Assembly: GCA_039683575.1 (NCBI GenBank) | Contig: JBDKRC010000137.1 | Span: 11,107 to 75,106, forward strand | Length of the DNA stretch: 64,000 bases | Reading direction: 5' to 3' | Source of the DNA: Armatimonadia bacterium | Lineage (GTDB): Bacteria; Armatimonadota; Zipacnadia; Zipacnadales; UBA11051 | Part shown: piece by piece, positions 25,223 through 63,430 of the stretch | Position numbering within the stretch: the stretch's first letter is position 1 | Layout: each line of letters begins with the position of its first letter | Translations under genes and position numbers: made by a program | The notes under the pieces: generated by a model | Seen by the model: only the letters and a program-made list of their open reading frames with translations | Database searches by the model: none | Told to the model about the DNA's origin: nothing

Positions 25223-28200
25223 TCACAGGCCCTTTGCGAAACTCTCGCAGATCGGCGCCGCGTGTGGCTCGGGAAACAGCAACTGCGGCGCCGGTTTGCC
25301 GTCTGCCAGTAGCTGCATCGTTCCGACGTTGCCCGCCAGGATGATCTCCCAGCACTGTCCCGCCTGCCCCACGGGAGCCAGCGTCAGGACCTGCTGCTGC
25401 TTCTCGGGCACAGCGACCGACACCAGGCGCTGCTTCCTGTCGGGCGAGGTCGCCTGCGCCGAAGGAATGTCTCCGTTGACGCCGCCGAACTCGATCTTCA
25501 TCTCGCGCGTGCCGGCAGGGATGTAGACGTAGTACTTCGCCCCATTCGCCGGCACCAGCCGTCCCGCCAGGGGGAACGCTGACGGCAGCTTCGGCGTCAC
25601 GGTCACCGGATCGCAAACCCGCCCCATACTGCCCTCAGCGGCCACTGTGAAGCGGTAGAGGCCCGTCTGACCGTCCGCGGGCACCTTCAGCGATAGCACC
25701 TTCTCGCCTTTCGGGTACGTCTCATCGTGTTGCGCCACCTGCTTGCCATCCGGCGCCACGGCCGTCAGCGAATAGGTGCGGGTCTCGTAGGTATGCGTGG
25801 TCGGGAAGCTGACGCTGAACTCCTGGTCCTTGTCTTCGAGGACCCAGAAGTCCACCGTCTCAATCTTCCTGGTCTTACCATCCACCTCCGGGCGAGTCCG
25901 AGTGAAGAGTAGCTGATAACCCGGCACTCCCACCATCAGCGGGTCTGGGGCCACCGGCTTGCCATACTCCGCCAGCGCTTTCATGAAAGCCGGGAGCCGC
26001 TGGATGATGTAGCCTCCCAACGACACCTGCCCCGACTGCATGAACCCCGCCAGCAGCGGGTCATCCCCGGCATAGACCGACGCGACCGCCTTGTCACACT
26101 CCCACACGCCGCGCCCCAGATACTTCGGGTCCTTCGTCACGAGGTAGGCATAGGCGAGGATGTTCATGTACTCCCGCGTCCCCCACAGCGACGACATGTC
26201 GCCATAGCCTTCCATATAAGAGTCCGTCCACGCCACCAGCGCCTTCTTCGCCGCCTCGCTGTGGGTCAGGTCCCAGTACCGCTCGATCCACGGCGCATAG
26301 TTCTCCCATTCGGGGAACGAGCCCAGCGGCGTGACCTTGTCCTTGTAGTGCGGCCAGTATGACAGTACATGGGCGGAGTACTTGACCGTCCCGTCCACAT
26401 TCTGCACCTTGGTCGTCAGGTGGGTGAAGAACGCCTCGATGATCGGCCGGTAGCTCTCATCCCAGGTGTCGGTGTACAGGTCAATGAGCGCTGACATCGT
26501 CCCCGTGCCGGAGCGGCTCCCGAAGGGCGCGGTGTACTTCGCCTTCACCGCCTCGCCCCAGTCCTTGGCGACCTCAAGCCCCACCTGTCCCCTGTCATGT
26601 GCCAGTACCACAGCGCGAAGTCCGTCATAGAGTTGTAGTCGGTCAGCCGATTGCCCGAATGCCAGTGCACGATGCCCTTGTAGTCGTTCAAGGCGCCCTT
26701 CAGCTTGCCCTGGGGGTACTCCAGCGCCTCGAACTCGGGCGTGCTGTAGTGGCAGAAGTCCACATCGAGCACGTGCCGGGTGTTGCGGATGGCATAGTCC
26801 AGGTACTTTGTATCTCCTGAGCGCAGGTACAGCAGCCACGGCACCCGCGGCGCCCCGTGGTGGGTGTTGCGCCAGCAGCGGTAGGCATCGCTCCACCGGC
26901 GCTTGCCCATGTCCCACGAGGTGTGGCTGTCTCCATAGTTCCACAGGCCATAGTCGCGCGTGAAAGCCTGCATGCGTCGCTCAGCATCGAAGTTGTCTGA
27001 GATCAGCTTCTCATACTTCGGAAACAGATCGGGGCTATAGGGCTGCATGGCCCCAAAGACGCCGGAGTCGCACATCCACTTCACATCGGCGAGCGCCGCA
27101 GGCGGATTCTGCCGTACGCGAGCCGTAATGAGGTCCACCTGCGTGCCGGGAGCGCTGAAGGTGAGCCAGAATTCGTGGGTCTTGGCGACGCCCATCCCAT
27201 TGGCGTTTTTGGAGGACCGCAGGTAGCGGTAGTCGTTGTCGCTCAAGCCCTCCTGGTGGCTGTAGAAGGCCTCTGGAGCCTGGAAATCGAGCACCTCACC
27301 CTCATGGGCATACCAGGCATATTGCAGATTCGCGTCCTCGATCTTCCGGTCGGGGTTCTTGACGCCATGGGCCGGCCAGACGTGGAAATTCAGGCTCGTA
27401 GGGGTGACAGTGAACTCCTTGGGAAAGAGTTGGCGGAAGTCGCGCACCTGCAGCGTGCAGTTGGCCCTGGGGCCCGTAGTCGTCACCAGACCCAGTGGCT
27501 GTGCGGACGGGCCACACGGGCCGGAGAGCAGTTTGAACTTGTCGAAGTCATACTGCACGAGCCCCACGGGATTGTCGCCCACCGCTGCCTCAAGCGCTTT
27601 GCCATCCTCCATCACAAATCCCGCCCGCGTGCTCTCTACGGGCACTGAGAAGCCGATATCGCGGAATCGCAGCTTCCGGGAGTCCTCGGTCATGAGCCAC
27701 GTATACATGACCCGCACGGTGGGCTGCCCGGCATAGAAATGGTACCGGATGATGAACTGGCACTTGCGGTCACCAGTGTCGCTGACATACCAGCCGCGGG
27801 TGGCAACAACCGTCCGCAGCGGCCCCTCTTCCTCGACTTGGACGGACGGCTTGTCGTCCCTTGAGGCACGGAAGATCTGTCCGCCATCGGTGACGAAATA
27901 CGCTCCAGAAGTGGGGTCAATTGCACAAACGGAGTTAACCGATGTAACGATTTGGCCGATTCCTGAGCACCTCGTTCTGCTCATTGAAACCTGCATCGGC
28001 CCGGTATCAATGTCAACCAAATCCGCCGTCTGCTTCACCCGTAAAGCCTTCGCCACCGGCGCCCGTCTGACACCCTCGCCGAACTCCAACCCCAGCTTCC
28101 TCCCGGTCGCCGAGAGGTCGCTCTGGAAGTCGAGCAGCAGCCATCTGACGGACCCATCCCGGTGCTTGCCGGTACAGAGGGCCTGCAGCGGCAGTTCCCG

Positions 28201-28389
28201 CCCCTGCTCGTCCAGCAGACGCACGTTGTCCGCGGATTTGAGGGCACCCTCGGGAAAGGGCACCCCGGTGGTCACCGGCCACGCGGTGACAGCTTGCCCG
28301 GCGGGGTTGCTGACGTTGAGGTCTATTCTCGCCGCAAACGTGCCAGCAGCCAGCAGGAGCGCGCTCAGGAAGCAGGTCAGGCGGATCAT
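25223..28389 (-). pseudogene. large secreted protein (about 1055 aa if contiguous) split into two overlapping ORFs (26545-28389 and 25223-26944) by a 1-nt frameshift in a C4 run at 26579-26582. Either an authentic pseudogene or a homopolymer indel error.
   Basis: The upstream ORF ends ...WYWHMTGDRWGL-RSPRTGARR*. The +1 frame continues ...GLEVAKDWGEAVKAKYTAPFGS.... Inserting one G gives the uninterrupted ...HMTGDRWGLEVAKDWGEAV.... Signal peptide MIRLTCFLSALLLAAGTFAA at 28389. Confidence 0.55.
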
Positions 28390-28414
28390 CCGGATACTAC
28401 CTCGCGACGTGGTA

Positions 28415-30941
28415 TTACAGCGTTGGCATCTCGGCTGGGGCCAGGGGCGCGGTCTTGAGCGCCTCGGCCATCTCCCGCCGCCAGCGGTATACATCCGCCG
28501 GATCGCTGGTGTATTCGGTCATACTCCTGCAGAGCGAGGAGGGCACGCTGAGGGCCGCTTTGGCCCTCTCAAGCCATTTTGCGTCCGCGGCGGGGCCGGC
28601 TTCGACGCTGGCAATGGCCTTCTCAAGCAGCCGCGCGTAGGCGTAATCTTCCAGCCCGTCGCGGAAGTTCTCGAGGCGGATGGTGGGCAGCGGCGTGCCG
28701 TCGGGCCCGGCGCAGAGCCATGAGCCATCGCCGTGGTAGGTGGTCCAACTCCGCGGGTCCCAGTCGGTGAAGGGCCCGCCGGTGATGGGCTTTTGGGAGT
28801 TCCAGATGCTGGTCTGGTAGTAGAGGAAGCCGTCGGGCCGGTACTTGGCCGTCTGCGCCCCCATCAGCACCCGGCCCTCGATGGCGGGGTACTCAACGAA
28901 CATATTAGCGAAGGGGTGGTGCGGACCGCAGCAGATGTACCACCAGACCTGCTGGCCCTTGGCCCGCACCTGGTCGGCCAGCGCCCGATCATACTTGGGC
29001 GTCAGCGGGCAGAAGGCGTCCATGGACTTGATGACCGAGTTGGTGCCGAAGCTGTGGTCATACGTCGTGGTCATCACCGCCACACCGGGGCATTCCTGCT
29101 TGAAGACCTCCGCCGCGCGCTGGACACCCGGGAAGAGCTCGGCAGGGTTCTCGTCGCAACCATAGATATAGGCATGGTCGAGGAGGCCGAGAGCCTTGGT
29201 CTGCTCGTAGGCCGCCTTGATGCGGGCGAGGGTCTTCTCGCGCCAGACTTCCTGCTCGGCTGGCTTGTCGCCGAGAATGGCGTAGTAGCCCAGGTTGAAG
29301 CGCCCAAGCTGCCCGCGCTCGTGCAGGCGCTTCAGAATCTCGAAGTCGGGACTGCCGCTGTGGTAGAGGCTGTCGTAGGTCAGGTAGTAATCGGCCAGGA
29401 AGTCGCCCCACTGCAGGCGGTGCTTCTTCCAGGCGTTCATCGGGTAGTCTTCGGACTTGCGCCATTCGGCCTGCTGAGCCTTCGTCAGTTCGGTCGGATG
29501 GTCGTGAGGCGAGAAGGTAACCGCCAGGTCCAGCGGGGAGCGATCGGGCAAGGTGAAGGGATATACCTCAACGCGCAGGTTAAAGGCGTAGAGGGGGTTT
29601 GCCGGCGGCAAGGACCTCCAGCTTGCCGCGGTAGACGCCGGGCTGCTGGTCTTTCGGGGCGCGGAAGCGAACCCAGAAGGCCTGTGCGTCGCCGGGTTGC
29701 ACGTCAGCGGCATCCATGAAGTCGAGTATCGGGTCGGGCCACCAGCCGATGTGAGAGGTACCGTAGGGCGGCCGGGCCTTGGTCTCGACGTAGCCCACTG
29801 GTACAGGCTCGATGTAGCGGTCCGCAAAGGCGGCACCCCCGGGAATCTGCAGGTCGCGCACCCGCACCTGAACCCGCTTGAGTGGTTGCTCGCAGGGCAG
29901 CACAACGACCTGGAGCGATTCCTTCTCGTTGCGTGCGAGCGCCAAAGAGGCATCGGGAGCGAGGCGGAAGGTCGGCGGAACCCCGCGCGGCAGGACCTTC
30001 TCCATTGAGGTGGCAAAGCCGACGACAACATCGCTGGGACCGGCCTGCGTGGTCTGTGTCTGCAGGCGCACCGGCTCGAATTCGGCGCGCAAGGCGCTGC
30101 GGGCTTTGACGGTGGCAATCTCGGACTGCAGGTTCAGGCTGAGTTCATCGCCTTTGAGCATGGCAGGATCTCCCTGCGCGACGAGTTTGGCAAACTGCTC
30201 GACCTGCCGCTCGCAGTCGGCCAGGCGGGCGTTGGCCCAGGCGGCTACGCGGGGCAGCCGGGAAACGGTGTCGCGCACGCTATCACGAGCTTCCTGCAGC
30301 ATCTGCCGGAGCAGCGGAAGGTGGCGCTCCTGCAGAGCTGCGAACTGCCTGATGTAGTCGGCAGACACTTCGGGAGCTTTCTCACCTGGCTTGAGAAGCT
30401 GCAGCGCGTCCAGGCAGATCTCCATGTCGCCGACGGGGCGCTGAGTGAAGAAGTGCAGGATGGAGATGTCCTTCGCATCGACGTTCTGCGTCGCCAAGCC
30501 CGCCAGAGGCACCTGCACTGGCACGTAACTGTTGGCCGGAATGGTTACGTTGAAGCTCAAGCCCTTACGGACGGGCAGCTTCGAGTCGGAGATGAAGAGA
30601 CTCAGGCCGTGGTTGTAGGGGGTGGGGTTGGTGACCGCAAAGAAGAGGCGGTCATAGCCCGTCCAGTCTTTGAGGGCGGGGTTAGCCTCGACTGCCGGCC
30701 ATTCGCCCATGCCCTGTTTCCACTGCGGCGTCCGCAGGCATAGCGCGTGCGTCCCCGAGGTCGCGAAGCGGGCCTCGCACGCGACGGGGAAGCTGCGGTT
30801 GGTCGTGCGGCCCTCATCATGCCACGCTTTGACGTCGGCCTCATTCTCGAAGTCAAAGAGCATGGTGCCCGCCTGACCCGGCAGGGCCGAGAGCAGGCAC
30901 AATGCGGCCAGCCATAGGACGATGTGTTTCACGGTGATCAC
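28415..30941 (-). pseudogene. large secreted DUF4091-like putative glycoside hydrolase (about 840 aa if contiguous) split into ORFs 29580-30941 and 28415-30118 by a 1-nt frameshift in a G5 run at 29593-29597
   Basis: ORF A ends ...RGKLEVLAAGKPPLRL*. The other frame reads ...PPANPLYAFNLRVEVYPFTLPDRSPL.... Deleting one C on the coding strand gives ...LAAGKPLYAFNLRVEVYPF.... Signal peptide MITVKHIVLWLAALCLLSALPGQA. The C-terminal region is similar to that of the 30960-33959 paralog. Confidence 0.55.
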
Positions 30942-30959
30942 CTCGAAGGATAGTTCGCG

Positions 30960-33959
30960 CTAGCGCGGAGCGGCTTCAAGCAGACTCTCGGCTTGCGTGA
31001 TGATACGCTCAAGTTCCTCTGCATTGGTGTTGAATTCGCTATAGCTTGTCACGACCGCGTCGGCGGCGGTGAGCACGGCCTGCGCTTGACGCCGCCACTC
31101 GCCCCCTTGTTGGTTGCCCTGTGAGGCGGCGAGTTCCTCAGTTAGGAGGGCCAAGGTATCGTAGTCGTTGAGCCCCTCACGGAATAGCTCCCAGCGGATC
31201 GAGTTCAGGATGCCATCCCTGTTCGGAGTGGGATACAGCATCCAGCCATCCCCGTGGCGGCGAGGCTTGCCGTCAAGGCCCTCGGTCCAGGGGTCGAGTT
31301 CGTTGACTCCCCCGGTGCCGCCCCAGTAATTGATAGACCACCAGATCAGACCGTCGAGACCGACTTTGCGCGCCACCCATGGAAGGATGCGAGCATTGAT
31401 AGCCGGGAGGTCTATGAGAGCGAGCTCATTGTGGTAGGCCCAGAGCTTGCCGCCTGCGGCGTGTATGGCCTGCACCGCACCGGGGCTGAGGTCGGGGGCA
31501 CCGAAGTACAGGGCGGGACACCAGAGGTCCACGAGGCCCTGAAGCTCCGGCAGGGGGGAGTTGGAGATGAAGATGGGCAGGTCGGGGGCGGCCTGCCGGA
31601 CTAGGCGCGCGAGTTTGGGGAGTTTGTCGCGCAGGACGGCGTCTTTGGCCCAGAACGGCTCGTCCCACAGCCAGAGGGCCGTGCGGTCCATCCAGCCCTC
31701 GCGGCGGAAGACCTCGGCTATCTCCCGGATCCTCGCCTGGAAGCTGGCGGCAAAGGCGGGGTCGTCGGGGTCAAGGTCGAGGTCGCCCCACTTGCGACGG
31801 CCGTCCCAGCCGCCCGCGCCGAGGAACTGCACGGGAAACCACGCGAAGCGCAGGCCGGTGGCGAAGTAGCGCTTACCGGCGGCGGCGATGTCGCCATCTT
31901 CGCCGATCCGGAAGCGCCCGGTGCTGGCGCAGCGGTGGGCGGCAGCGTTTTGGGCGAACTGCTCCCAGGGAATGTTGCCGTACTTGGTCTGATATATGCC
32001 CCAGCCGTACCAGACATCGGCGGCGACGCGGAGGCGGCTAAGGTCAGGAAGCTCGTACTTGAGCACCCGCAGGCGCAAATCGAAGTCTTCACTGACGCCC
32101 TCGCCGAGAAGATGGGCTTTGCTCTGATAGACGCCGGGCTTTGCATCGCGTGGGACTGCGACCGTCAGCCAGAAGACAACGTGCGCGGGGCCTGTGGCGT
32201 CCACGGGCGTCGGGGGCAGCAGCGGGTCGGGCCAGTCCCCCGCAAAGGTGGTCTGGTCGGAAGGGGTCTTGATGGTGACGTAGCCGACGTTATTGAGGCG
32301 CAGGCACTGGGCGGACAGCTTGCCCTGTGCCGAGGTGAGCTCGTCGAATTGCAGCCGCAGGCCGCGCAGGGGCATCTGGCGGGGCGTCAGGCCGATCTGC
32401 AAGGCGCGGGTCTGGTTGCGAGCGGCCTGCAGCTCAAGGACAGGGCGCGGCGCGGTGGGCTCGATGCGATCCGAGGGCAGGACCTTGTAGGTGGGGCTGA
32501 GCGACCAGAGCAGGAAGCGGGGCGTGGCGGCGAGGACCTGGGGGCGCAGCACCTGCACGTCGGCAGTCTGCGGGAGGGCGTAACGGCACTGTGAGACGGG
32601 GCTGCCGGCGGCGAGCAGCTTGACGTAGAGGTCCTGCTTGCCGGTTTCGGCCAGCTTGAGGGGCATCACGAAGGGGGCAGTGCTGACGGACTGTTCGGTG
32701 GTAGTTGTCTCGCCGCTACGCTTGACGGCGCTGCAACGGAGAGTCGTCTGGGCAGCGCCGGTGACGGTACCGCGAAGCTCCTGGCCTTGCAGAGAGGCGA
32801 TGGTTAGGCCCGGCGGCTGCTCGCCGAAGATCAGCAGGCCCCATTCGGCGGGATTGCACCAGTCCTTCTGGCGCGCGAAGAGCGAGCAACTGGTCCCGTG
32901 CGGTCGATTCCGACCGACTTGCAGGGCCCATGCGCCGCTCGGGCCGCGGCCGAGGTCGGCGAAGGGAACGGCCATCTCGGCGCTCCAGCCGGTGGACGTG
33001 CGCACGGCGCGCACCTGCCACTTGGGCTCCCACGACAGGTCGAGCTTAGCGGTCCCGTTCTTGTCCCGCGTACCGCGCTGGCTGTACGGCGTCCCGAGGG
33101 GATTGGCGGCGAGTTGGAGGTAGCCGGTCCCGGAACGGTCGGGGTCGAGGAAGACTTCGAAGGAATCGTCGCCCCATACCGGGCCGTCGGGCTGGGTCTC
33201 GCGGGCGATGAGCTTGGCGGGATCGTCGGTGCTCTGCATGGCGAGGTAGAGGCGGGTTGCATCATAGCCTACGCGGAGGGCCACGGGCTGGGCGCATGGC
33301 CGGGCGTCGAAGTCGGCGAAACTGCCGAGGGGCGCAACGGATTTCCAGGCGGGGTCATCGAGTTGGCCGTCAATCGTGGGCGCGGCGGGGAGGCGGCTGG
33401 CGGTGATGAACAGGTCGCGTTCCTGGACCTGTGGCACGTTGTCGGTGAGGGTCACGTTGTCGAGCAGTAGTGCGTGGGCGCGCCCTTCGGAACCCTCGGC
33501 GCGCTTCTGGCCGATCCACAGTCGCGTGATCTGGGCACCGCTGACGGCCTGGCGGAAGCTGCGGGCCAACGGGAGGTCCACGTGGACCCACTGGTTGAGC
33601 TTGGGGCGCAGGGAGGGCATCGCGCCATACTCTTTGCCGTCGGCGGTCGTGACGAGTACCTGGATATAGTACGGCTCGGCGGGGCCGAGGGAGCAGAAGT
33701 CGAAGCTGAGGCAGGAGTCGCGGTCAGTGAACTGCCAGCCTGGGCTGACATAGAGGACGCCTGAGGTGGACTCTGCCTGAAGAGCGGCGCCGGTCGGACC
33801 TGCGGCGAGGCGGTGGGTGAGTTTGACGGCGGCGGGCGAGGAGGTGACCCAACCATCGAGGCCAGTCTCGAAGTCGCAGGTTTTTGCAGGGGCTGCAAGG
33901 GCCGCCACACACGGCAAGATTGCGAGCAGGCTGAACCAGTAGCGGAAGGCTGAGGGCAT
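30960..33959 (-). CDS. large secreted protein with N-terminal CBM-like domain, CBM9-like domain and DUF4091-like C-terminal putative glycoside hydrolase domain
   Basis: Signal peptide MPSAFRYWFSLLAILPCVAALAAPA. CBM9-like block DGQLDDPAWK...DDSFEVFLDPD. C-terminal LWLWDEPFWAKD...LWCPALYF is similar to the 28415-30941 paralog. Confidence 0.6.
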   Translation of the reverse strand: MPSAFRYWFSLLAILPCVAALAAPAKTCDFETGLDGWVTSSPAAVKLTHRLAAGPTGAALQAESTSGVLYVSPGWQFTDRDSCLSFDFCSLGPAEPYYIQVLVTTADGKEYGAMPSLRPKLNQWVHVDLPLARSFRQAVSGAQITRLWIGQKRAEGSEGRAHALLLDNVTLTDNVPQVQERDLFITASRLPAAPTIDGQLDDPAWKSVAPLGSFADFDARPCAQPVALRVGYDATRLYLAMQSTDDPAKLIARETQPDGPVWGDDSFEVFLDPDRSGTGYLQLAANPLGTPYSQRGTRDKNGTAKLDLSWEPKWQVRAVRTSTGWSAEMAVPFADLGRGPSGAWALQVGRNRPHGTSCSLFARQKDWCNPAEWGLLIFGEQPPGLTIASLQGQELRGTVTGAAQTTLRCSAVKRSGETTTTEQSVSTAPFVMPLKLAETGKQDLYVKLLAAGSPVSQCRYALPQTADVQVLRPQVLAATPRFLLWSLSPTYKVLPSDRIEPTAPRPVLELQAARNQTRALQIGLTPRQMPLRGLRLQFDELTSAQGKLSAQCLRLNNVGYVTIKTPSDQTTFAGDWPDPLLPPTPVDATGPAHVVFWLTVAVPRDAKPGVYQSKAHLLGEGVSEDFDLRLRVLKYELPDLSRLRVAADVWYGWGIYQTKYGNIPWEQFAQNAAAHRCASTGRFRIGEDGDIAAAGKRYFATGLRFAWFPVQFLGAGGWDGRRKWGDLDLDPDDPAFAASFQARIREIAEVFRREGWMDRTALWLWDEPFWAKDAVLRDKLPKLARLVRQAAPDLPIFISNSPLPELQGLVDLWCPALYFGAPDLSPGAVQAIHAAGGKLWAYHNELALIDLPAINARILPWVARKVGLDGLIWWSINYWGGTGGVNELDPWTEGLDGKPRRHGDGWMLYPTPNRDGILNSIRWELFREGLNDYDTLALLTEELAASQGNQQGGEWRRQAQAVLTAADAVVTSYSEFNTNAEELERIITQAESLLEAAPR

Positions 33960-34942: not shown

Positions 34943-35050
34943 GCTGGGCAATGGTCCGCCAATAATCTGAATCAGCCTGCAAATGCAGCAGGACACTACC
35001 TTACTCTAGGCGAAGCAGTTTAGTAACAAGTGTACCAGGAGGGAGATCAG

Positions 35051-35653
35051 ATGAGACGCGGCTTCACGTTGATAGAGTTGCTGGTTGTGATTGCCATTAT
35101 CGCCATCCTCGCAGCGATCCTGTTCCCGGTATTCGCCAAGGCGCGAGAGAAGGCGCGGCAGGCATCGTGTCTATCGAACGTTCGCCAACTGCTGACCGCA
35201 ATCCTGTCTTACTCGCAGGACTATGACGAGCGCCTGCCACTCACCCCCGATCCGGGAGCACTCTCCTACCTGTGGTGGGACATCACGCTTCAGCCGTATA
35301 TCAAGAACACGCAGATTCTCAAATGCCCAAGCGCGGTAGACCGCCCGGTGGGGTATGGCTTCAACTACCGGCATACACGCGTTGATGGCTGGGGTGGCGG
35401 AATTTCGCTGGGAGAATGCAAGGAGCCTGCGAGCCAGTATATGCTCATGGATGGCTACACACACTGTGTGTACTGCGTCTATTGCTGGCCGACGGTTGCC
35501 AGTGAAGGGCCGTACGGCAACAACTGGTATATCGGCAAGCGCCACAATGACGGGTCAAATGTGGGCTTCATAGATGGTCATGCCAAGTGGCTTAGCAACA
35601 ACACCCTGGTCAGTTGGACCTCGGCCAGCCAGGTGGCGTGGATGCATCCGTAG
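35051..35653 (+). CDS. prepilin-type N-terminal cleavage/methylation domain protein with DUF1559 (H-X9-DG) domain (type II secretion pseudopilin-like)
   Basis: [44 protein letters not shown]; C-terminal [12 protein letters not shown] (H-X9-DG). Confidence 0.8.
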
Positions 35654-39013: not shown

Positions 39014-40765
39014 CTAGAAGCCAACGGTGACGCTGGCCTGCAGCAGCTTCTGGTCCTCGGGGCGGGCGACGCTGATCGCGTCAGCGGCGTCCTCGATCTC
39101 GCTGCTCACGTTCTGCTGAGCATAAACGAGGTTGGCGGTGATGCCGTCAGCCAGCTGCTTGCTGGTGCCGATGGCCCACAGCTTGTCGTAGAAGACCGGG
39201 CCTTCCTTGGCGTCGACGTCAAAGTAGGCGACGGTGAAGGGCATTGAGCCCATCCGGAAGTCCAAGTGACCACCGAGTACGCGATGGTTCGTCATGGCCA
39301 GCGGGTTGCGCAGCCACTGCTCGAAAGCGGTGGCGGTGACGCCGAGGGCGTTCGCAGCCGCGACGATCTCGCGCTCGTTAGCACCGCGGAACTCGTAGTA
39401 CGGGTGCAGGATCGAGTAGACAGCGTCATAGTTTGCATCAACGCTGCTGTAGAAGCCGGTCAGGCGCCAGTCGGTGCCGCGCCAGATGTCGGCCGAGCCC
39501 ATGAAGGCGTTGGCACTATCGGGATCGTCACCGAAGATGCCATTGGTCAGCTTCGCGTACTCCATGCGGATGTCGCGACCCCAGATCTGAGCGGACAGGT
39601 CAGCGCTCCACGCCTCTTCCCTACCCACGCCGTCGGCGAGCCAGTTGACGCCGACATTCCAGGTCGGGCGGGCATAGGCGAGACGAACGCTGCCATAGCC
39701 ATCGTTGTCGCCGTAGAACGAGTTGAAGTTCTCGTCCACGTTGAAGCTAAAGTCGTCGCTCGCCATAGGGGTGAAGACCCCGTCGACGCCGCCAGCGAAC
39801 AGATCGAGATCGAAGTTGCTGCCGAAGATGTCGTTGACCTGCATGCGGACGCCCTGCTGGGACTTCCGCTCATTGTCAACGAGCAGGCCCATGCCGTAGC
39901 TCTGGAACTGGCGGCCGATGGTCCACGTCGCGGGCAGCAGGAACTTGCTGTTGACCACTACGTTGGCTTCGTCGATCCACAGGGTCTCGGCGAGGTTGCC
40001 ATCAACTGCGGGCATCGAGGTGTCGAACGTACCGGTCTGGGTGGTGTCGATACCGTCGAAGCCGCCCAGCCACTGGTCATCGGTGTCGCGCATCTTGATC
40101 GCGATCCGGCCGGAGACGGAGTCGCTGATCTTGCCCTGCACGCCAACCATCGCGGTGAGGTTGTCGAACTCGTTGTCGAAGTCGACCTTCTCACCAGCGG
40201 TGCCGATGCGGTAGTCGAGCCAACCAAAGACCTTCGGGCCCTTGGCCTGCTCTTCGAGGTACGCTACGCGCTCGCCGAGCTCAGCAACATCGTCGCCGAG
40301 CAGGTCGAGGTCGCCGCGCAGGTCCTTGAGCTCGTTCTTGAATTCGTCACAGAGCTTGTTGACCAGAGCAGCGATCTTGGCTTCGTCAACGACCCCTGCG
40401 GGTCCCTGATCGCCCTTGTCACCCTTAGCGCCAGGAGCGCCGGGGGCGCCAGGAGCGCCGGGGGCGCCGGGGGCGCCGGGAGCGCCAGCAGCGCCGATAG
40501 CGCCAGTGTCGCCCTTCTCGCCCTTGGCCTGCTGCACGACGTCGAGCAGCCGGCTGATGGCCATCGCGAACTCGTAGCGAGTCATCGCGCGGTCACCCTT
40601 GAAGGTGCCATCGGGATACCCGATGATGATGCCCCGCTCGACCAGCTGGTTGACGGCGTCATACGCCCAGTGGTCGAAGGGCACGGTCTGCGCCGGATTG
40701 GCCTGCGCGAAGCAGGGGGCCACGGCGATTACGGCCAGGATTGCAACCAGAATCAGTTTACGCAT
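39014..40765 (-). CDS. SLH-domain outer-membrane porin-like protein with a collagen-like (GAP)n repeat and coiled coil (SomA/Slp-type)
   Basis: Signal peptide; SLH domain VPFDHWAYDAVNQLVERGIIIGYPDGTFKGDRAMTRYEFAMAISRL; GAPGAPGAPGAPGAPGAPGAKGDKGDQGPAG; C-terminal beta-rich domain ending in F. Confidence 0.8.
   Translation of the reverse strand: MRKLILVAILAVIAVAPCFAQANPAQTVPFDHWAYDAVNQLVERGIIIGYPDGTFKGDRAMTRYEFAMAISRLLDVVQQAKGEKGDTGAIGAAGAPGAPGAPGAPGAPGAPGAKGDKGDQGPAGVVDEAKIAALVNKLCDEFKNELKDLRGDLDLLGDDVAELGERVAYLEEQAKGPKVFGWLDYRIGTAGEKVDFDNEFDNLTAMVGVQGKISDSVSGRIAIKMRDTDDQWLGGFDGIDTTQTGTFDTSMPAVDGNLAETLWIDEANVVVNSKFLLPATWTIGRQFQSYGMGLLVDNERKSQQGVRMQVNDIFGSNFDLDLFAGGVDGVFTPMASDDFSFNVDENFNSFYGDNDGYGSVRLAYARPTWNVGVNWLADGVGREEAWSADLSAQIWGRDIRMEYAKLTNGIFGDDPDSANAFMGSADIWRGTDWRLTGFYSSVDANYDAVYSILHPYYEFRGANEREIVAAANALGVTATAFEQWLRNPLAMTNHRVLGGHLDFRMGSMPFTVAYFDVDAKEGPVFYDKLWAIGTSKQLADGITANLVYAQQNVSSEIEDAADAISVARPEDQKLLQASVTVGF
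40428..40497. repeat. tandem 9-bp GC-rich repeat (gcgccgggg/gcgccagga) encoding the collagen-like GAPGAP tract
   Basis: agcgccaggagcgccgggggcgccaggagcgccgggggcgccgggggcgccgggagcgccagcagcgcc. Confidence 0.8.
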
Positions 40766-49727: not shown

Positions 49728-50426
49728 CTAATCAAGCCGCAATTCCCGCTGCACCGAGGCTCGCAGCCGGGCCGTGGCCTGAGTGTGGATCTGGCAGATC
49801 CGGGACTCGGTGACGCCCATGATCTCGCCAATCTCCTTGAGGGTCAGTTCCTGCTCATAGTAGAGGCTTATTACCGTCCGTTCACGGTCTGGCAGAGCCA
49901 GGACCGCCGCTGCCACGAGCCGCCGCAACTCCACCTTCTCCATCACCGCCAGTGGGTCTGCGAACTCTTCGGAGACCTCGATACCGGCATAGTCAGCGAT
50001 CTCATGCGGCTCATCCCCCAGCAGCAACTCCTCGATCGAGCCGATGGTAGCGATGCTTGCCGCGGACAGGAAACGATGATACTCCGGCAATTCCATCCCC
50101 ATTGCCTCGGCGACTTCCTCCTCCTCCGGAGCACGCAGTAGCCGCCCTTCCAACTCGTTGATGACTTCCGCCAGTTGCCGCAGCTTGCGGCGCATGCTCC
50201 GCGGGGCCCAATCCTTGGCTCTCAGCGACTCCATGACCTCGCCCCGCACTACCGTGGTGGCATAGGTCTCAAACTTCACTCCGCGGTCCGGGTCGAAGCG
50301 ATCCACGGCCTTGATCAGGCCGAGAATGCCCGCTGACACCAGGTCCTCGCGGTCCACGTTGTTCGGCAGATGGGTGGTGATGCGGCCGACAACATACTTC
50401 ACAATCCTGACGTGGTCACGGATCAC
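49728..50426 (-). CDS. fliA: RNA polymerase sigma-28 factor (FliA/SigD/WhiG). The true N-terminus probably extends about 20 codons upstream of the GTG at 50426.
   Basis: Regions 2-4: DLVSAGILGLIKAVDRFDPDRGVKFETYATTVVRGEV..., VISLYYEQELTLKEIGEIMGVTESRICQIHTQA. Upstream in-frame ...VAEWCQTPAEREQVIRDHV resembles the SigD N-terminal region (W..W...ARE.L) but has no ATG/GTG/TTG. Confidence 0.8.
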   Translation of the reverse strand: MIRDHVRIVKYVVGRITTHLPNNVDREDLVSAGILGLIKAVDRFDPDRGVKFETYATTVVRGEVMESLRAKDWAPRSMRRKLRQLAEVINELEGRLLRAPEEEEVAEAMGMELPEYHRFLSAASIATIGSIEELLLGDEPHEIADYAGIEVSEEFADPLAVMEKVELRRLVAAAVLALPDRERTVISLYYEQELTLKEIGEIMGVTESRICQIHTQATARLRASVQRELRLD

Positions 50427-50485: not shown

Positions 50486-52489
50486 TCAGATTGCTCCCTC
50501 CTTTATCACGGTCGCGACCGGGTCGGCCATGGGCACCTGGGCGGTGTGGATCGTGTGAACTTCAGTCAGCGGCAGCAGTTCCGCGGCCTGCACGGCGCGA
50601 AGGGCCGCGCCTGACTCTGCGATGAGTTGTGCCACCGCTCCGCGAGTCCGGGCGGTGCATAGTACGGTCGCCGGGTGCCCCGGGGCGCCGAGACGCTCTG
50701 CCAACTGCCTCAACATCGCGAACCATAGCGCTGCACGCTGAGGAGCCAAGGCCAGCGGCAGCCCCGAACGGTCCACGGCCGTTGCCAGTTCCTGCTCCAG
50801 TTCGCGCGCGAGTTCAACCACTTCGACGAAGCCACCGGGCGCCACCAGCCGCGTAATCGTCTGCGCCAGCGCGGGTCGCGCTGCCTCTGCCAGGTCGGCC
50901 GCTGTTCGGCCCTGCGCGGTTGCCAGCGCCTCCAGGAGCGATATCCGTTCAGTCAGGGGCACGCCCTCCGCCAACAGGCATCTGCCCACCTCACGCACGT
51001 CGCTCAGCGTTACCCCTGCCTGCCTGACCGCCGCCACTGTCGCCGGATGCGTTACCTCCGCCATCTGCAGCAGTTCGGTCGCCCGCTGCAGGTCAAACAG
51101 CTCGGCGGCATGGCTGGTCACTGACGCCCGCACGTGCAACACCAACACCGCCAGCGGGTCCAGGACATGGTAGCTCGCTGCGTCCAAAGGCTGGGCATCG
51201 GTGTCTCGCAGCCAAGTCGCCTGCGCCCCATCCGGAAGGGCGGTTTCCAGCCCACCGCCCGGTAGCACCGCCTCCGCTACCGGAGCCACGAGCAAGCGCC
51301 CCGGGCGCAGTGTCGCCTCGGTGACCGTGCTGCCGCCCAACACGATGCGAAAACTGTTGCCCTGCAGGCCCTGCTCATCAGTCACGGCAAAAGGTGGCAC
51401 CGCGAAGCCCAATTCGTCCGATAGCGCCCCGCGTGTCTTCGCCAGCAGCCCTGGCAAGTCGTGTCCGGCCACCAGGCCGATCAAGCCGAGGCCCAGCCGC
51501 AGTTCCAGTTGTCCTGCAGGCTGCTCCTCAGGCGGAGGGGGTTGCGACCACTGTGCACGGTGCAAGTACAAGCCGCAGGCGCCCACAAGCGCCGCCGACA
51601 GCAGCAGTGGAGCCTTCGCTATCCCCGGAGCCAGTCCCACCAACAACAGGGCCATCGCCACTGCCCCGATCAGCGCGGGACGCGCCACCAGTTCGCGCAG
51701 GAACGGTCCGCCTTCCGGCTGCTCCGCTGTCCGCGCCAGCAGCAGCGCCGCCGCGGCCCCCATCAGGATCGCCGAGATCATCAGGATCGTCGCCTGTCCC
51801 AGGGCGGGAATGGCCTGATCGGCCACCGGCATCCCGTTTGCCATGCCGGCCAGCGGAATGGCAACGGTGATCACCACTATGGCGATGGCGTCCCCCTTAA
51901 GAAACCGGGCCACCCCATCCATCGCGCCAAAGAAGCTCTGCTGGGCCTCCATCCGCCGCGCCTCGGCCGCTCCGGCTTCAGGAGTGAGACGTCCCGCCGA
52001 GAGCGCCGCCTCAAGTGCCATCTGCTTGCCTGGCATGGCGTCGAGCGCAAAGCGCGCAGCAACTTCGGCAAGGCGCATGACACCGAGGTTGATCACTATG
52101 AAGGTGACAATTACCAGCAAGGCCAGCAGCACCACGGCGCTGAGAATCTGGCTCCCGCCGCCGGTCATCTGCATCCCGAGACTCTGTGCCAGCGAGCCCG
52201 CAGCGCCTCCGGTCGTGACTGCCCGCAGCGCCCCGAGGCACAGCCCCACCCGGAGCAGGCTCGCCGTCACCATCACCACGGGCAGCGAAGCAAACCGCTC
52301 GACGCTTGCGGCCGAGGCCGCCAGAATCAGTACGGCCACCGCCAGCGCCAGATTAGCCGCGAATAGCGCGTCGAGCACCACGCCCGGCAGCGGCATCACC
52401 AGCAACGCGAGCGCGACCAGCACGGCCAGCATTACCACGTGTTCACGTGTCAGCTTGAGCCTGGTTATTGGGCCGAGCAACTCAGCCAC
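50486..52489 (-). CDS. flhA: flagellar-type III export gate protein FlhA (FHIPEP family)
   Basis: Start GTG 52489 with a GGAGGGG RBS; the ORF-track extension to 52657 is not supported. LVMPLPGVVLDALFAANLALAVAVLILA; cytoplasmic domain conserved. 667 aa. Confidence 0.9.
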   Translation of the reverse strand: MAELLGPITRLKLTREHVVMLAVLVALALLVMPLPGVVLDALFAANLALAVAVLILAASAASVERFASLPVVMVTASLLRVGLCLGALRAVTTGGAAGSLAQSLGMQMTGGGSQILSAVVLLALLVIVTFIVINLGVMRLAEVAARFALDAMPGKQMALEAALSAGRLTPEAGAAEARRMEAQQSFFGAMDGVARFLKGDAIAIVVITVAIPLAGMANGMPVADQAIPALGQATILMISAILMGAAAALLLARTAEQPEGGPFLRELVARPALIGAVAMALLLVGLAPGIAKAPLLLSAALVGACGLYLHRAQWSQPPPPEEQPAGQLELRLGLGLIGLVAGHDLPGLLAKTRGALSDELGFAVPPFAVTDEQGLQGNSFRIVLGGSTVTEATLRPGRLLVAPVAEAVLPGGGLETALPDGAQATWLRDTDAQPLDAASYHVLDPLAVLVLHVRASVTSHAAELFDLQRATELLQMAEVTHPATVAAVRQAGVTLSDVREVGRCLLAEGVPLTERISLLEALATAQGRTAADLAEAARPALAQTITRLVAPGGFVEVVELARELEQELATAVDRSGLPLALAPQRAALWFAMLRQLAERLGAPGHPATVLCTARTRGAVAQLIAESGAALRAVQAAELLPLTEVHTIHTAQVPMADPVATVIKEGAI

Positions 52490-52508
52490 GTAGCCCCTCC
52501 GTAATCGA

Positions 52509-53210
52509 TCATGAGCTTCTGCCCTTCCTTGCCCGCCGCTTCGCGAGCCCCGGCCCCTCCGTCTCCTTCTGCTCATCAAGAAGCTCCCGGTGTGACAGAC
52601 GCGCCTGTTGCATGTATGCCGCCCGCGTCCACAGCAGGTGTAGCAGCGCCATGCCAACGAGCACCGCGAGCCATCTCCCCCACGCCTGCGCCAGCGCCGG
52701 CCGCGCCCAGAGTTCCTGCCAACTCTCCGCCCGGCCCCACGCTCCCAACAGCCCCGCCAGCACTACTCCTCCACCAGCAAGTGCCACCGTCCCCAGCATC
52801 AGCCCCGGCCACTGCACTCCTCCACGCTTGGCCCGCCGCAAGCTTTTTCGCATCAGCCCCACGCTCTCTCCACTCCCTGCCTCACCCGTCTGCAGTCCCC
52901 GTGCGAGTGCTGCCACTATCGCAGCCGCGCCGCCCAGCGCTGTGATGACAAGCGCGCCCAGACCCAGGTGCCATGCCAGCAGGCTCCGAAGGCGCGCTGG
53001 CTCGTGCGCCACCAGTGCTTCATGCTGCAAGTCACGTGCCAGAACCAGCCGCGCGAGGTGCAGAAGCTGTGGGCCGAGGAATATCAGCCCCAGCGTCGCC
53101 CCAACCAGCACTGCCGCGCCAGTTAGCGCGGTCGTATCCGGTATCACCCCCGCTTGCCGCAACCGCGCCAGCCGTCGTGCTGTTGGTGGATAGCGCTTCA
53201 GCTCATCCAT
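52509..53210 (-). CDS. flhB: FlhB export switch protein, transmembrane domain only (234 aa). The C-terminal autocleaving NPTH domain is absent.
   Basis: MDELKRYPPTARRLARLRQAGVIPDTTAL...four TM helices...LSHRELLDEQKETEGPGLAKRRARKGRSS*. The stop falls where FlhB_C normally begins. flhA starts 20 nt downstream. Confidence 0.75.
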   Translation of the reverse strand: MDELKRYPPTARRLARLRQAGVIPDTTALTGAAVLVGATLGLIFLGPQLLHLARLVLARDLQHEALVAHEPARLRSLLAWHLGLGALVITALGGAAAIVAALARGLQTGEAGSGESVGLMRKSLRRAKRGGVQWPGLMLGTVALAGGGVVLAGLLGAWGRAESWQELWARPALAQAWGRWLAVLVGMALLHLLWTRAAYMQQARLSHRELLDEQKETEGPGLAKRRARKGRSS

Positions 53211-53934
53211 GCTGCGCCAGCCAGCGGACAAGCTCCCGCGCCGTCTCGTTCATCTGCCCGAGCATGAAGCCGCCAAGCAGTGGGGCGACGACCACCAGCG
53301 CCACGAGTGTCACGAGGTATCGCAGCCCGACCGCTACCTCCAGCGCCTGCAACCCCACCAGACATCGCTGTGCCGAGGCCGCGATCAGCGAGGCGAGCAC
53401 CACCGCCAGCACCATCGGGGCTGCCGCGGCCAGGGCGACGGCGAGGAGCCTTGCCGGCCAGTAGAGCCACAGCGGGTGCGCCAGTAGTGGCGTCGTGCCG
53501 AGTAGCGGCAGAGCTTGATATGAGTCGCGAAGCAGCGCGATGAGCCAGTGAGGACCGTTCAGCACCACAAACAGTACTATGGCCAGCAAATACATCAGGT
53601 TGGCGACAGGGCCCTCTTCCCCATCCCCCACCAGGCCCTGCTCCGCCAGGTGGCCGGCGGCTTGCATGCCCCACACGGTAAGCCACAACCCGAAACCGAG
53701 AATCAGCCCAATCGCCACTTCGCGCACCAGCGCCGCGACATATAGCCCCACTGGCAGCAGCCTCACTCCGCCATCAAGCGACAACCCCAGGGGCAGCGCT
53801 ACTACGGCAGCCACACCCAACCGCAGCGGCAACGGAAACTGCCGCGCGCCCGTCGGCGGCGCCAGCGACAGCGCGCCGGCGCACCGCCCGAAGACGAGCC
53901 CCCACAGTGGTAGATAGGCCGCCCAGTCTCCCAT
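53203..53934 (-). CDS. fliR: flagellar biosynthetic protein FliR
   Basis: Polytopic membrane protein in canonical position between fliQ and flhB; FliR-like N-terminus. Confidence 0.8.
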   Translation of the reverse strand: MGDWAAYLPLWGLVFGRCAGALSLAPPTGARQFPLPLRLGVAAVVALPLGLSLDGGVRLLPVGLYVAALVREVAIGLILGFGLWLTVWGMQAAGHLAEQGLVGDGEEGPVANLMYLLAIVLFVVLNGPHWLIALLRDSYQALPLLGTTPLLAHPLWLYWPARLLAVALAAAAPMVLAVVLASLIAASAQRCLVGLQALEVAVGLRYLVTLVALVVVAPLLGGFMLGQMNETARELVRWLAQHG

Positions 53935-62243: not shown

Positions 62244-62624
62244 CTACCCCACCGCATCCAATGCCGCCAGCAGTTCCCCCGGGTTCGGCGGCTTGTTCAA
62301 GATGCCCTGAACATACTCGCGCAGCGGTCCGAGCACCTCGTTGCCGGGCAGTACTCCCGTAAGCACATACAGCGGCGTTTCCGCCAGCTTGGGCACCGCC
62401 CTGAGCCTCCGGCATAGCTCCAGCGCCTCCATACCGGGCATGTTCACATCAATGATGATCACATCGGGCTGACTGATCTCCGCCAGCGGCAGCGCTTCCT
62501 CGCCATTACCTGCGGCAAGAACCCGCGCCTGCCGAGCCTGCTCCAGGATGCAACCCACCGCGCGCGCTATGAAAGCATCATCATCAACCACGAGAACCGT
62601 GCGTGACGCCCCTTCTGCTTGCAT
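62244..62624 (-). CDS. single-domain response regulator (CheY-like receiver)
   Basis: TVLVVDDDAFIARAV...DVIIIDVNMPGMEALELCRRLRA...LYVLTG. Confidence 0.8.
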   Translation of the reverse strand: MQAEGASRTVLVVDDDAFIARAVGCILEQARQARVLAAGNGEEALPLAEISQPDVIIIDVNMPGMEALELCRRLRAVPKLAETPLYVLTGVLPGNEVLGPLREYVQGILNKPPNPGELLAALDAVG

Positions 62625-62632
62625 GGCAGCCC

Positions 62633-63328
62633 TCACGCGCTTCCTTCCAGGAGATCCTCAGAGGAAGCGAGCCGCATCCTTCCGATGTATGGCACCTGCA
62701 GGCAGAGCAGTCCCTCCTCCGCTACGAGCGTCATCTTCCCACCATGTGACTGCAACAGCGCCCGGGCTGAACGGTAGCCGAAACGGGTTGTATCGAAACT
62801 CGCCGGGCGTTCGGAGGCGGCAACAACATTCAGGAGCACGCTCTCGCCTTCCACTGCTGTCGAGAGACTCAACCGGGCCTTTGGCCCTGCCCATTCCGTC
62901 TGCGTCTCGATGGCGGCCAGCATTATCTGCCGCAGCACCGGACGCGACCAGATCAGTGGCAGCGGCGCCTCATCTGCCTCACGCACCACCGCGACTTCGT
63001 GCAACTCCAGGAGGTCCCGCAACTCTTCCAGCGCTTCGTCCACCACTTCGCCCAGCACGATCTCCTCCAACTCGCCGTCTGGTGGCGGGGCCGCCAGCGA
63101 GGCGAAATAGCTCCCCATACGGCCGAGGCGCCGGGCCTCGGCGATGATTGCCTTCGCATACTTCTCCCGCGTCTCCATATCCAGCGTCGTCAGCCACGCG
63201 AGGCACTCGGCATATGTGCAGATGGCGGTCAGTGGTGACCGCATGTCATGATTCACCTGCCGCGCCAGCTCCGCGAACGTTTCCTGGTCTGGGAAGTACT
63301 GCCCGTGTGCATCAATGATCATCCGCAT
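62633..63328 (-). CDS. cytoplasmic histidine kinase (HisKA plus divergent HATPase domain, no sensor/TM)
   Basis: H-box HDMRSPLTAICTYAECL. Start MRMIIDAHG at 63328. Confidence 0.7.
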   Translation of the reverse strand: MRMIIDAHGQYFPDQETFAELARQVNHDMRSPLTAICTYAECLAWLTTLDMETREKYAKAIIAEARRLGRMGSYFASLAAPPPDGELEEIVLGEVVDEALEELRDLLELHEVAVVREADEAPLPLIWSRPVLRQIMLAAIETQTEWAGPKARLSLSTAVEGESVLLNVVAASERPASFDTTRFGYRSARALLQSHGGKMTLVAEEGLLCLQVPYIGRMRLASSEDLLEGSA

Positions 63329-63349
63329 AGTTCGATCCCTCAAAATGAC

Positions 63350-63393
63350 GAAGACCCGGCTTGCCGTTAACATCATCGGCAGTCCGGGTCTTC
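63350..63393 (-). promoter_or_regulatory. perfect 10-bp stem / 24-nt loop hairpin 22 nt upstream of the HK start codon
   Basis: gaagacccgg-cttgccgttaacatcatcggcagt-ccgggtcttc. The loop contains the inner palindrome gccg...cggc. Confidence 0.6.
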
Positions 63394-63430
63394 ACTTAAG
63401 AGACCTGAGCGTATTTTGAGTATTGAGGCA

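Follow-up and report, generated by a model that had tools for sequence, protein, structure and literature searches.

The "switch" protein of type III export, FlhB/SctU, is taken to be universally conserved and built of two domains, of which the C-terminal one, FlhB_C, is the textbook site of early-substrate docking and autocleavage. Here we describe an flhB gene, located in a 64-kb stretch of DNA from an Armatimonadia bacterium (contig JBDKRC010000137.1; this whole stretch is called the window below), that encodes the membrane domain and linker of FlhB and lacks FlhB_C. Canonical FlhB/SctU proteins (PF01312; 6S3L, 36hu) have an N-terminal peptide, four helices in two hairpins and a juxtamembrane motif, and their genes lie between fliR and flhA. 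The Armatimonadia protein shares all of these features, but the autocleaving NPTH domain of the canonical proteins is absent from it, as is their FlhB_L motif. The FlhB_L loop lies between helices 2 and 3 and wraps around FliQ. Stand-alone homologues of FlhB_C are also known, namely FlhX of Helicobacter pylori and YlqH of Bacillus subtilis. Like the present gene, they illustrate that the two halves of FlhB can be encoded apart, but they represent the opposite half of the protein and none was found near any short flhB examined.

Structural work places FlhB_TM as an integral subunit of the FliPQR gate, with the N-terminus and the start of FlhB_CN clustered at the gate entrance; the FlhB_L loop is reported to be the most conserved part of FlhB and to be essential (Kuhlen et al., PMC7064499). 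In the intact Salmonella export apparatus, FlhB residues 1-249 have been modelled as the gate helices, an N-terminus around the juxtamembrane stretch, and a linker helix that runs through the FlhA cup. FlhB_C sits on the FlhA_C ring in this structure, and the linker was proposed to be a coupling element from FlhA to the gate (bioRxiv 10.64898/2026.06.13.732081).

Full-text literature searches turned up no description of a natural FlhB without a C domain, or of this Armatimonadota cluster. The nearest known cases are the Salmonella delta-CCD mutants, the reduced type III secretion system (T3SS) of the Myxococcales (PMC3459982) and the leftover flagellar T3SS of Lysobacter (PMC7688988). In Salmonella, flhB alleles with a stop at codon 258 (stop-258) or a deletion of residues 270-383 (delta-270-383, or delta-CCD) export the late substrate FlgM-Bla in the absence of Fluke, without a hook-basal body or FliK, and have lost export of the early substrate FlgE-Bla (Chevance et al., mBio 2026, PMC13344023). 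The natural protein is cut at nearly the same place (~250, compared to 258 in the laboratory allele), and in both cases FlhB_CC is missing from a protein that still has its membrane domain and linker. The mutants, however, were made in bacteria with a complete flagellar system and depend on the absence of Fluke and on overexpressed basal bodies. The Armatimonadota truncation arose naturally, is ancient and has been conserved, and it is accompanied by the loss of the hook module, fliG and the FlhB_L motif.

The reduced, non-flagellar T3SS of the Myxococcales ("Myxo" group, Abby & Rocha 2012, PMC3459982; the "needleless T3SS*" of M. xanthus, PMC12075869) resembles the window system in having a conserved T3SS core, with FliO, and no motility parts, secretin or needle. 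It has been argued to be functional from the long conservation of its sequence and gene order (PMC3459982). The two belong to different lineages, however, since the window components score higher on flagellar than on Sct models, and the window system carries fliA. In Lysobacter enzymogenes OH11, export-gate genes are likewise found without a flagellum, and non-flagellar proteins are reportedly exported (PMC7688988). No FlhB truncation was reported there, and canonical Xanthomonas genes complement the mutants; moreover, BLASTP against a close flagellated relative sufficed to identify the Lysobacter gate proteins, at >40% similarity (PMC7688988). The window cluster, by comparison, is highly diverged.

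The short flhB gene and its family

The flhB open reading frame (ORF; 52509-53210, minus strand) encodes a 233-amino acid (aa) FlhB/SctU homologue that starts with ATG and reads MDELKRY; an alternative TTG upstream, at 53231, would give 240 aa. The C-terminus reads ...LSHRELLDEQKETEGPGLAKRRARKGRSS (also written ...KETEGPGLAKRRARKGRSS) and is followed by TGA at 52511-52509, with a second TGA 9 codons beyond on read-through. At the other end, the fliR stop codon overlaps the flhB start, falling within the first flhB codons (ATGGATGA). A spacer of 19 nt (52490-52508, minus strand) carries the flhA ribosome-binding site, GGAGGGG (52500-52494), and flhA starts with GTG at 52489-52487, 19 nt after the flhB stop. 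The first-pass annotation of this DNA had described the same C-terminus, flhA ribosome-binding site and GTG start, although it gave the gap as 20 nt. Among the loci collected for comparison (labelled with L and a number), this spacer is 18 nt in L001, and stop and start overlap in L002 and L088.

The product consists of an N-terminal peptide, four membrane helices, a degenerate FlhB_L loop, a juxtamembrane MSxRELxxExKETEG motif and an Arg/Lys-rich tail. It matches the Pfam family Bac_export_2 (PF01312) at 57.8 bits (gathering cut-off 24.4), although its best-scoring stretch is confined to profile positions 3-108 of 335, or about the first third. The NCBIfam flhB model aligns residues 181-229 with profile positions 192-240 of 348, and the score of 41 bits is far below the equivalog cut-off of 349. 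A profile of the short family gave a more extensive alignment: its positions 2-239 correspond to residues 5-251 of the solved 383-aa FlhB chain 36hu_K1 (E=2e-41), and it also matched further solved FlhB chains (E=3e-37 and 4e-36) and SpaS (E=5e-12). This alignment places the natural end at about Salmonella-type residue 250, inside FlhB_CN and some 18 residues before the N269/P270 cleavage site of the NPTH motif. The protein had initially been described as ending exactly where FlhB_C begins, which needs correction, since the first ~40 residues of FlhB_CN (the linker) are retained.

An AlphaFold2 (AF2) model of the short FlhB, with a predicted local distance difference test (pLDDT) score of 88, has helices at residues 27-66, 71-112, 134-159, 170-202, 207-218 and 221-232; together with the alignment to FlhB 5-251, it shows the N-terminal peptide and four helices arranged as two hairpins. 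The juxtamembrane linker motif at the start of FlhB_CN (canonically MS.QE.KDE.K..EGDP) is kept as MQQARLSHRELLDEQKETEGPG, equivalent to Salmonella-type residues 218-238. Within it, E209 and E213 are nearly invariant across the short family, and the family E213 aligns with Salmonella E230. The short FlhB has no NP[TE]H and no globular autocleaving C-terminal domain. The canonical FlhB_L motif (L.P...NP..G.KR.FS) was not found in the Armatimonadota-type clade, in which the loop is shorter, at ~21 residues; in the window, the loop region is at 52800-52880 (FlhB residues ~110-135). The motif is present in the short forms of L081, L085 and L087 and in full-length controls. Neither its loss nor the existence of a large, conserved family of short FlhBs had been noted in the first-pass annotation.

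We searched for the missing domain with a hidden Markov model (HMM) of FlhB_C, built from 20 full-length, NPTH-containing FlhBs of the exhaustive search described below and run on six-frame translations. As controls we used 80 FlhA loci (L005-L084) with no more than 32% identity to the query FlhA, among the matches listed; 63 of the 80 have a FlhB N-domain. The HMM was positive, in the same reading frame, in all but one of these 63, and it also caught two stand-alone genes of ~100 aa, in L054 and L061. It found no match, in any frame and even at E<=10, in the 64-kb window, L001-L004 or L085-L093. A separate FlhB_C gene is thus not present within the window or the 11 related loci that carry a short flhB. 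Because FlhA matches FHIPEP from profile position 2, nothing is hidden in the 5' end of flhA. These results bear out the first-pass annotation, which had noted that FlhB_C is absent and that no frame has space for it ahead of flhA, which is complete. It had also named two findings that would speak against this, an in-frame continuation after an indel and a separate FlhB_C gene; the first is countered by the second stop and by conservation of the stop in relatives, and the second did not appear in the scope just given. The truncation of flhB is genuine.

An exact look-up of the 233-aa FlhB returned no identical record. Homologues at 96, 75 and 73% identity are 233-235 aa long and end at the identical position. 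A word-indexed protein search with the short-FlhB profile recovered 12 proteins, and an exhaustive profile search of 1.84 billion representatives returned 91. The best 42 matches of the latter are all short except for three that are partial, and full-length FlhBs appear from about E=1e-7 onward. With 93 proteins in hand, classification by N- and C-domain HMMs gave 54 complete N-only proteins (209-275 aa), 29 with a C domain (286-385 aa) and 10 fragments; in the N-only group, the tails are 6-27 aa long and 32% Arg. NCBI labels for the short FlhBs describe them merely as EscU/YscU/HrcU-family switch proteins, and the same short length is seen in independent assemblies from NCBI, ENA, Logan and JGI. 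In a rough neighbor-joining tree of FlhB representatives at the 50% identity level, ~47 short representatives, including the window protein, form one clade without a full-length member, and the remaining short forms are scattered among full-length FlhBs.

The flhB gene is under purifying selection. Compared to L001, its 73%-identical relative, the whole gene has a ratio of nonsynonymous to synonymous substitution (dN/dS) of 0.25, and its last 38 codons one of 0.23, with values of 0.14 for flhA, 0.16 for fliR and 0.07 for fliP. An NCBI Armatimonadota metagenome-assembled genome (MAG) encodes a FlhB that is only 25% identical (P0047), yet its gene lies in the same kind of cluster, beside the same PrsA-MazG-S4-PPDK-enolase flank as in the window. 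To judge from such gene neighborhoods, inheritance of the short flhB cluster looks deep and vertical.

The short forms of L081, L085/L086 and L087 keep the FlhB_L motif and thus look like independent truncations. The first, from the Thiobacillus sp. UBA6205 MAG (L081, 9186-9941), is a FlhB of 251 aa whose N-domain is canonical and whose C domain is absent. The stop codon of its gene overlaps the start of flhA; flhF, an unassigned gene and fliA come next, and unrelated genes flank this five-gene island. The protein and a second 251-aa variant from the same 90%-identity cluster occur together on 7 contigs (NCBI, JGI, Logan and ENA). The Thiobacillus case suggests that loss of FlhB_C need not always mean loss of the flagellum. 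L087 (3006-10702) encodes a 588-aa FliF-FliG fusion, FliH, FliI, a 71-aa FliN, FliO, FliP, FliQ, FliR and a 256-aa short FlhB. In L085/L086 (698-11302), an SctJ-type cluster (SctJ-like ring protein, ATPase, FliP, FliR) has a 251-aa short FlhB as its last gene and a 742-aa FlhA between fliP and fliQ; no secretin is found in the locus, and the neighbors (a LysR-type regulator and TctC) are proteobacterial-looking.

The export gene cluster and its relatives

The short flhB is part of a cluster with the order fliF(short)-fliH-fliI-fliJ-fliM(like)-fliN-fliO-fliP-fliQ-fliR-flhB-flhA-fliA, all on the minus strand. This order is collinear with the Bacillus fla/che operon, and the comparison locates the losses. 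The Bacillus control locus (L041) reads fliK-flgD-x-flgE-swrD-fliL-fliM-fliY-cheY-fliO-fliP-fliQ-fliR-flhB-flhA, where x is an unassigned gene, FlhB has 364 aa (profile positions 1-335) and FliM matches PF02154 at 3e-75. In the window, the end of the fliJ-like gene meets the start of the fliM-like gene at 57401, so that the fliK-flgD-flgE-fliL position is empty; there is no fliG between fliF and fliH and no cheY before fliO, and the 3' third of flhB is absent. Rotor, ruler, hook module and the domain targeted by the ruler are exactly what this operon lacks, which ties the loss of FlhB_C to that of fliK and the hook genes, at least for this operon. A fit between the short FlhB and missing fliK and hook genes had been noted at the outset, and the empty syntenic positions strengthen it at the level of the operon.

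The same gene order recurs in L001, L002 (an NCBI Armatimonadota MAG with a FlhB 25% identical to that of the window) and L088, and the core of the cluster recurs in L090-L093. Four loci (L001, L088, L092 and L093) cover at least the part of the cluster from fliN to the short flhB, and the shorter L090/L091 show only fliR-flhB(short)-flhA-sigma. The downstream PrsA-MazG flank is common to L001, L002 and L088, extending via PPDK to enolase in the first two. In all 6 related loci that extend past flhA (L001, L002, L088, L090, L091 and L092), fliA adjoins it. No called gene in L001, L002, L088, L092 or L093 belongs to the rod, hook, FliK, FliG or flagellin Pfam families, and the FlgD, Mot and secretin families have no match in the gene tables of the related loci or in the surveyed ORFs of the window.

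The first gene of the cluster encodes a short FliF/SctJ-like ring protein of 271 aa (59779-60594; PF01514, 2.2e-7, profile positions 92-178 of 179), which has a single YscJ_FliF ring-building motif, a single membrane helix and, on the cytoplasmic side, a tail of ~85 aa. A suspected resemblance of this tail to FliG_N had no Pfam support even at E<=5. Next are fliH (59200-59757; PF02108, 1.3e-23) and the ATPase gene fliI (57836-59203; ATP-synt_ab, 3e-82, and T3SS_ATPase_C; TIGR01026, 544 bits); the fliI ORF reaches 59344, and a start near 59203 fits the 455-aa gene of L001. The fliJ-like gene (57401-57832) encodes a 143-aa coiled-coil protein rich in R, E and A, whose positional counterpart in L092 and L093 matches PF02050 FliJ. 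The fliM-like/SctQ-like product (56586-57401) has the C-terminal FliMN_C domain only and no FliM middle domain (PF02154). It is followed by fliN (56320-56592; FliMN_C, 8e-21; TIGR02480, 80 bits), fliO (55964-56323; PF04347, 1.3e-8) and fliP (55233-55949; FliP, 9e-61, 205 bits).

Between fliP and fliQ, on the plus strand, lies a gene for a lipoprotein of ~280 aa (54325-55167) with the lipobox LITGCGGG and no Pfam match. It occupies the same spot in L001, L002/L003 and L088 (25-77% identity) and is absent from L092 and L093; an AF2 model, for which no alignment was used, had a pLDDT of 41 and was unusable. The highly diverged fliQ (53943-54281, minus strand) scores 24.1 bits with Bac_export_3, just below the cut-off of 25. 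Its true start is probably an internal ATG, giving ~89 aa as in the 89-aa L001 gene. The degenerate FlhB_L loop and the sub-threshold FliQ may reflect co-divergence. The fliR gene (53203-53934; Bac_export_1, 2.3e-26) precedes flhB, and flhA follows it (50486-52489) as a full-length gene of 667 aa (FHIPEP, 1.8e-104, profile positions 2-652 of 657) that scores 311 bits with the FlhA model versus 242 with SctV. Directly 3' of flhA is a fliA/whiG-family sigma-28 factor gene (49728-50426; TIGR02479, 250 bits, cut-off 189.6), after which come PrsA, MazG and housekeeping genes.

For the core proteins (FlhA, FliP, FliR and FliN), flagellar models outscore Sct/injectisome models, and scores are far below the NCBIfam equivalog cut-offs, which makes the system flagellum-derived and highly diverged. 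The presence of FliO, FliH/I/J and FliA likewise marks it as an export apparatus of the flagellar type. No rotor or stator part (FliG, full FliM with PF02154, MotA/B) is encoded in the cluster or among the surveyed window ORFs, and the ORF survey of the window found no axial part or ruler (FliE/FlgB/C, FlgD/E, FliK, flagellin). The secretin SctC, needle SctF and SctD families were also missing among the scanned window ORFs, a set in which small ORFs of needle size were not scanned systematically.

Upstream of the cluster, also on the minus strand, are genes for a histidine kinase (62633-63376), a response regulator (62244-62636) and a GAF-HD-GYP protein of the cyclic di-GMP (c-di-GMP) phosphodiesterase type (60750-62216). 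The same three genes lie upstream in L001 (1-2452), which suggests a dedicated regulatory module. A scan for the sigma-28 consensus gave a single match in the window, at 63373-63399 (minus strand; TTAAG-N-GCCGATGA), just upstream of the kinase gene; with 2 mismatches it is weak and only a hint.

Several other features were seen elsewhere in the window and among the comparison loci. A run of large glycoside-hydrolase genes (26545-33959, minus strand) includes a PcRGLX-like gene and two of the GH123 type, one with a CBM9 domain; the overlapping ORFs 28415-30118 and 29580-30941 look like two parts of a single GH123 gene, separated by a frameshift or by starts that were mis-called. The ORF at 35030-35653 (plus strand) encodes a type IV pilin-like protein with an N-terminal methylation motif and DUF1559, and the one at 39014-40765 (minus strand) a protein of 583 aa in which collagen-like repeats come after an SLH domain. 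A Fimbriimonadales MAG (L025, 9983-12073) has a solitary full-length flhA, 30% identical to that of the window, with an aldo-keto reductase, a transposase and a type II/IV secretion ATPase as neighbors and no other flagellar gene within 10 kb.

A putative switch-less export machine and its alternatives

On balance, we lean towards reading the short flhB as a functional FlhB, consisting of membrane domain and linker, of a streamlined, hook-less and switch-less export machine derived from the flagellum. What the cluster still encodes is an export gate made of FliPQR and the membrane domain of FlhB, the FlhA ring, an ATPase complex of FliH/I/J, a platform of the FliN/SctQ type, a small ring of the FliF/SctJ type, FliO and the late-gene sigma factor FliA. 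Relative to an ancestral order of the fla/che type, it is without the fliG rotor gene, the ruler, the hook cap, the hook, fliL, cheY and the cytoplasmic domain of FlhB. The short protein corresponds to FlhB 1-249, the portion modelled in the Salmonella apparatus, and would therefore serve as a structural gate subunit and as the coupling element from FlhA to the gate.

Early (rod/hook-type) substrates dock on FlhB_C, and as long as this domain stays attached it also inhibits late export. Without it, no early/late hierarchy and no FliK-operated switch would be expected at the gate. One substrate class might be exported constitutively, in a state analogous to the "late" state that follows the switch; in the absence of a rod, its cargo would be delivered to the periplasm or to an unknown conduit. 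A gate restricted to a single substrate class had been suggested for this locus from the start, and by analogy the stop-258 and delta-270-383 alleles of Salmonella, which export late and not early substrates, behave as such a gate would be predicted to (PMC13344023). Expression and cargo would probably be under FliA control, and the retention of fliA beside flhA in 6 of 6 loci fits control by a late-gene sigma factor.

Several observations weigh against this interpretation. The Salmonella delta-CCD allele worked only with overexpressed basal bodies (PMC13344023), which suggests poor assembly without FlhB_C. Genes for hook, rod, FliG, Mot, flagellin or a separate FlhB_C may lie elsewhere in the genome, beyond the window; genes are known to be scattered in Armatimonadota genomes, and full flagella occur in some deep-sea classes (PMC10290634). 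The gate itself may differ from the canonical one, as FlhB_L is degenerate and shorter and FliQ is very diverged. FlhA_C Thr-490, which binds filament-type chaperone complexes, aligns with a Leu in the window FlhA by pairwise alignment, so that "late-type" recognition is only an analogy. No substrate candidate was identified. Finally, a short FlhB is also found beside flhF and fliA in the Thiobacillus MAG.

One alternative is that flhB is simply split in an ordinary flagellum, with a FlhX/YlqH-like C domain acting in trans and the rod, hook, FliK, FliG and Mot genes located elsewhere in the genome. The stand-alone genes of ~100 aa in control loci L054 and L061 demonstrate that such FlhB_C genes exist. 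FlhX of H. pylori has been reported to substitute for a deleted FlhB_CC. The Thiobacillus island, flhB(short)-flhA-flhF-x-fliA, is recurrent on several contigs, and some Armatimonadota are flagellated (PMC10290634). We nevertheless consider a split gene unlikely. There is no FlhB_C in the 64 kb or in the 11 related short-flhB loci, and the short protein ends before the beta-strand of FlhB_CN and the NPTH segment that holds FlhB_CC, which would leave a FlhX-type partner without a docking surface. In addition, the syntenic positions of fliG and the hook module are empty in an otherwise collinear operon, FliF has only 271 aa, and the FliM-like protein is without the FliM domain.

A second alternative, to which we give a similarly low probability, is that the cluster is non-secretory, the membrane complex having been retained for another role such as regulation of envelope machines or signalling through c-di-GMP and sigma-28. 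In Lysobacter enzymogenes, genes of the flagellar T3SS affect twitching motility by type IV pili (PMC7688988), but the same system is itself reported to secrete proteins (PMC7688988). The kinase, response regulator and HD-GYP module and fliA flank the cluster both in the window and in L001, FlhB_L and FliQ are strongly diverged, and no substrate was found, all of which would suit such a role. However, the full FliH/I/J ATPase complex and a well-conserved FliP (205 bits, dN/dS 0.07) are kept, and this points to active translocation.

A decaying relic, in which a flagellar operon is being lost and flhB is a truncated pseudogene, is very improbable and effectively refuted: many flagellar genes are indeed missing and components score far below equivalog cut-offs, but the genes of the cluster have dN/dS values of 0.07-0.25 and translationally coupled boundaries, and both the architecture and the length of FlhB persist down to 25% identity, with ~47 representatives at the 50% level in one clade. 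A sequencing or assembly artefact, with an indel creating a false stop and the C domain in another frame, has in its favor only the prior that MAG assemblies contain errors, and is refuted by the absence of FlhB_C from every downstream frame, by the complete flhA that begins 19 nt on, and by the stop position shared among independent NCBI, ENA, Logan and JGI assemblies.

Implications for type III export

The short FlhB looks like a natural counterpart of a laboratory mutant confined to a single export mode. With only the part of FlhB visible in the gate (~residues 1-250), a natural family of this size would represent a minimal export gate of natural origin. It allows the 2026 model, in which the switch is operated by physical removal of FlhB_CC, to be tested independently on evolutionary grounds, and the features of FlhB needed for translocation to be separated from those needed for substrate ordering.

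For the Armatimonadota, a poorly studied phylum, the cluster points to an undescribed secretion system derived from the flagellum. More tentatively, and as a possibility that we rate below an even chance, a deep clade with vertical inheritance, so far labelled Armatimonadota, may have independently turned the flagellar export apparatus into a dedicated secretion system without hook, rotor or switch, permanently "post-switch" and under sigma-28 control. If this is true, type III export as such would require neither FlhB_C nor even the FlhB_L motif, both of which would matter for hierarchical assembly alone, and the flagellum would have been exapted in nature a second time, in parallel with the event that gave rise to the injectisome.

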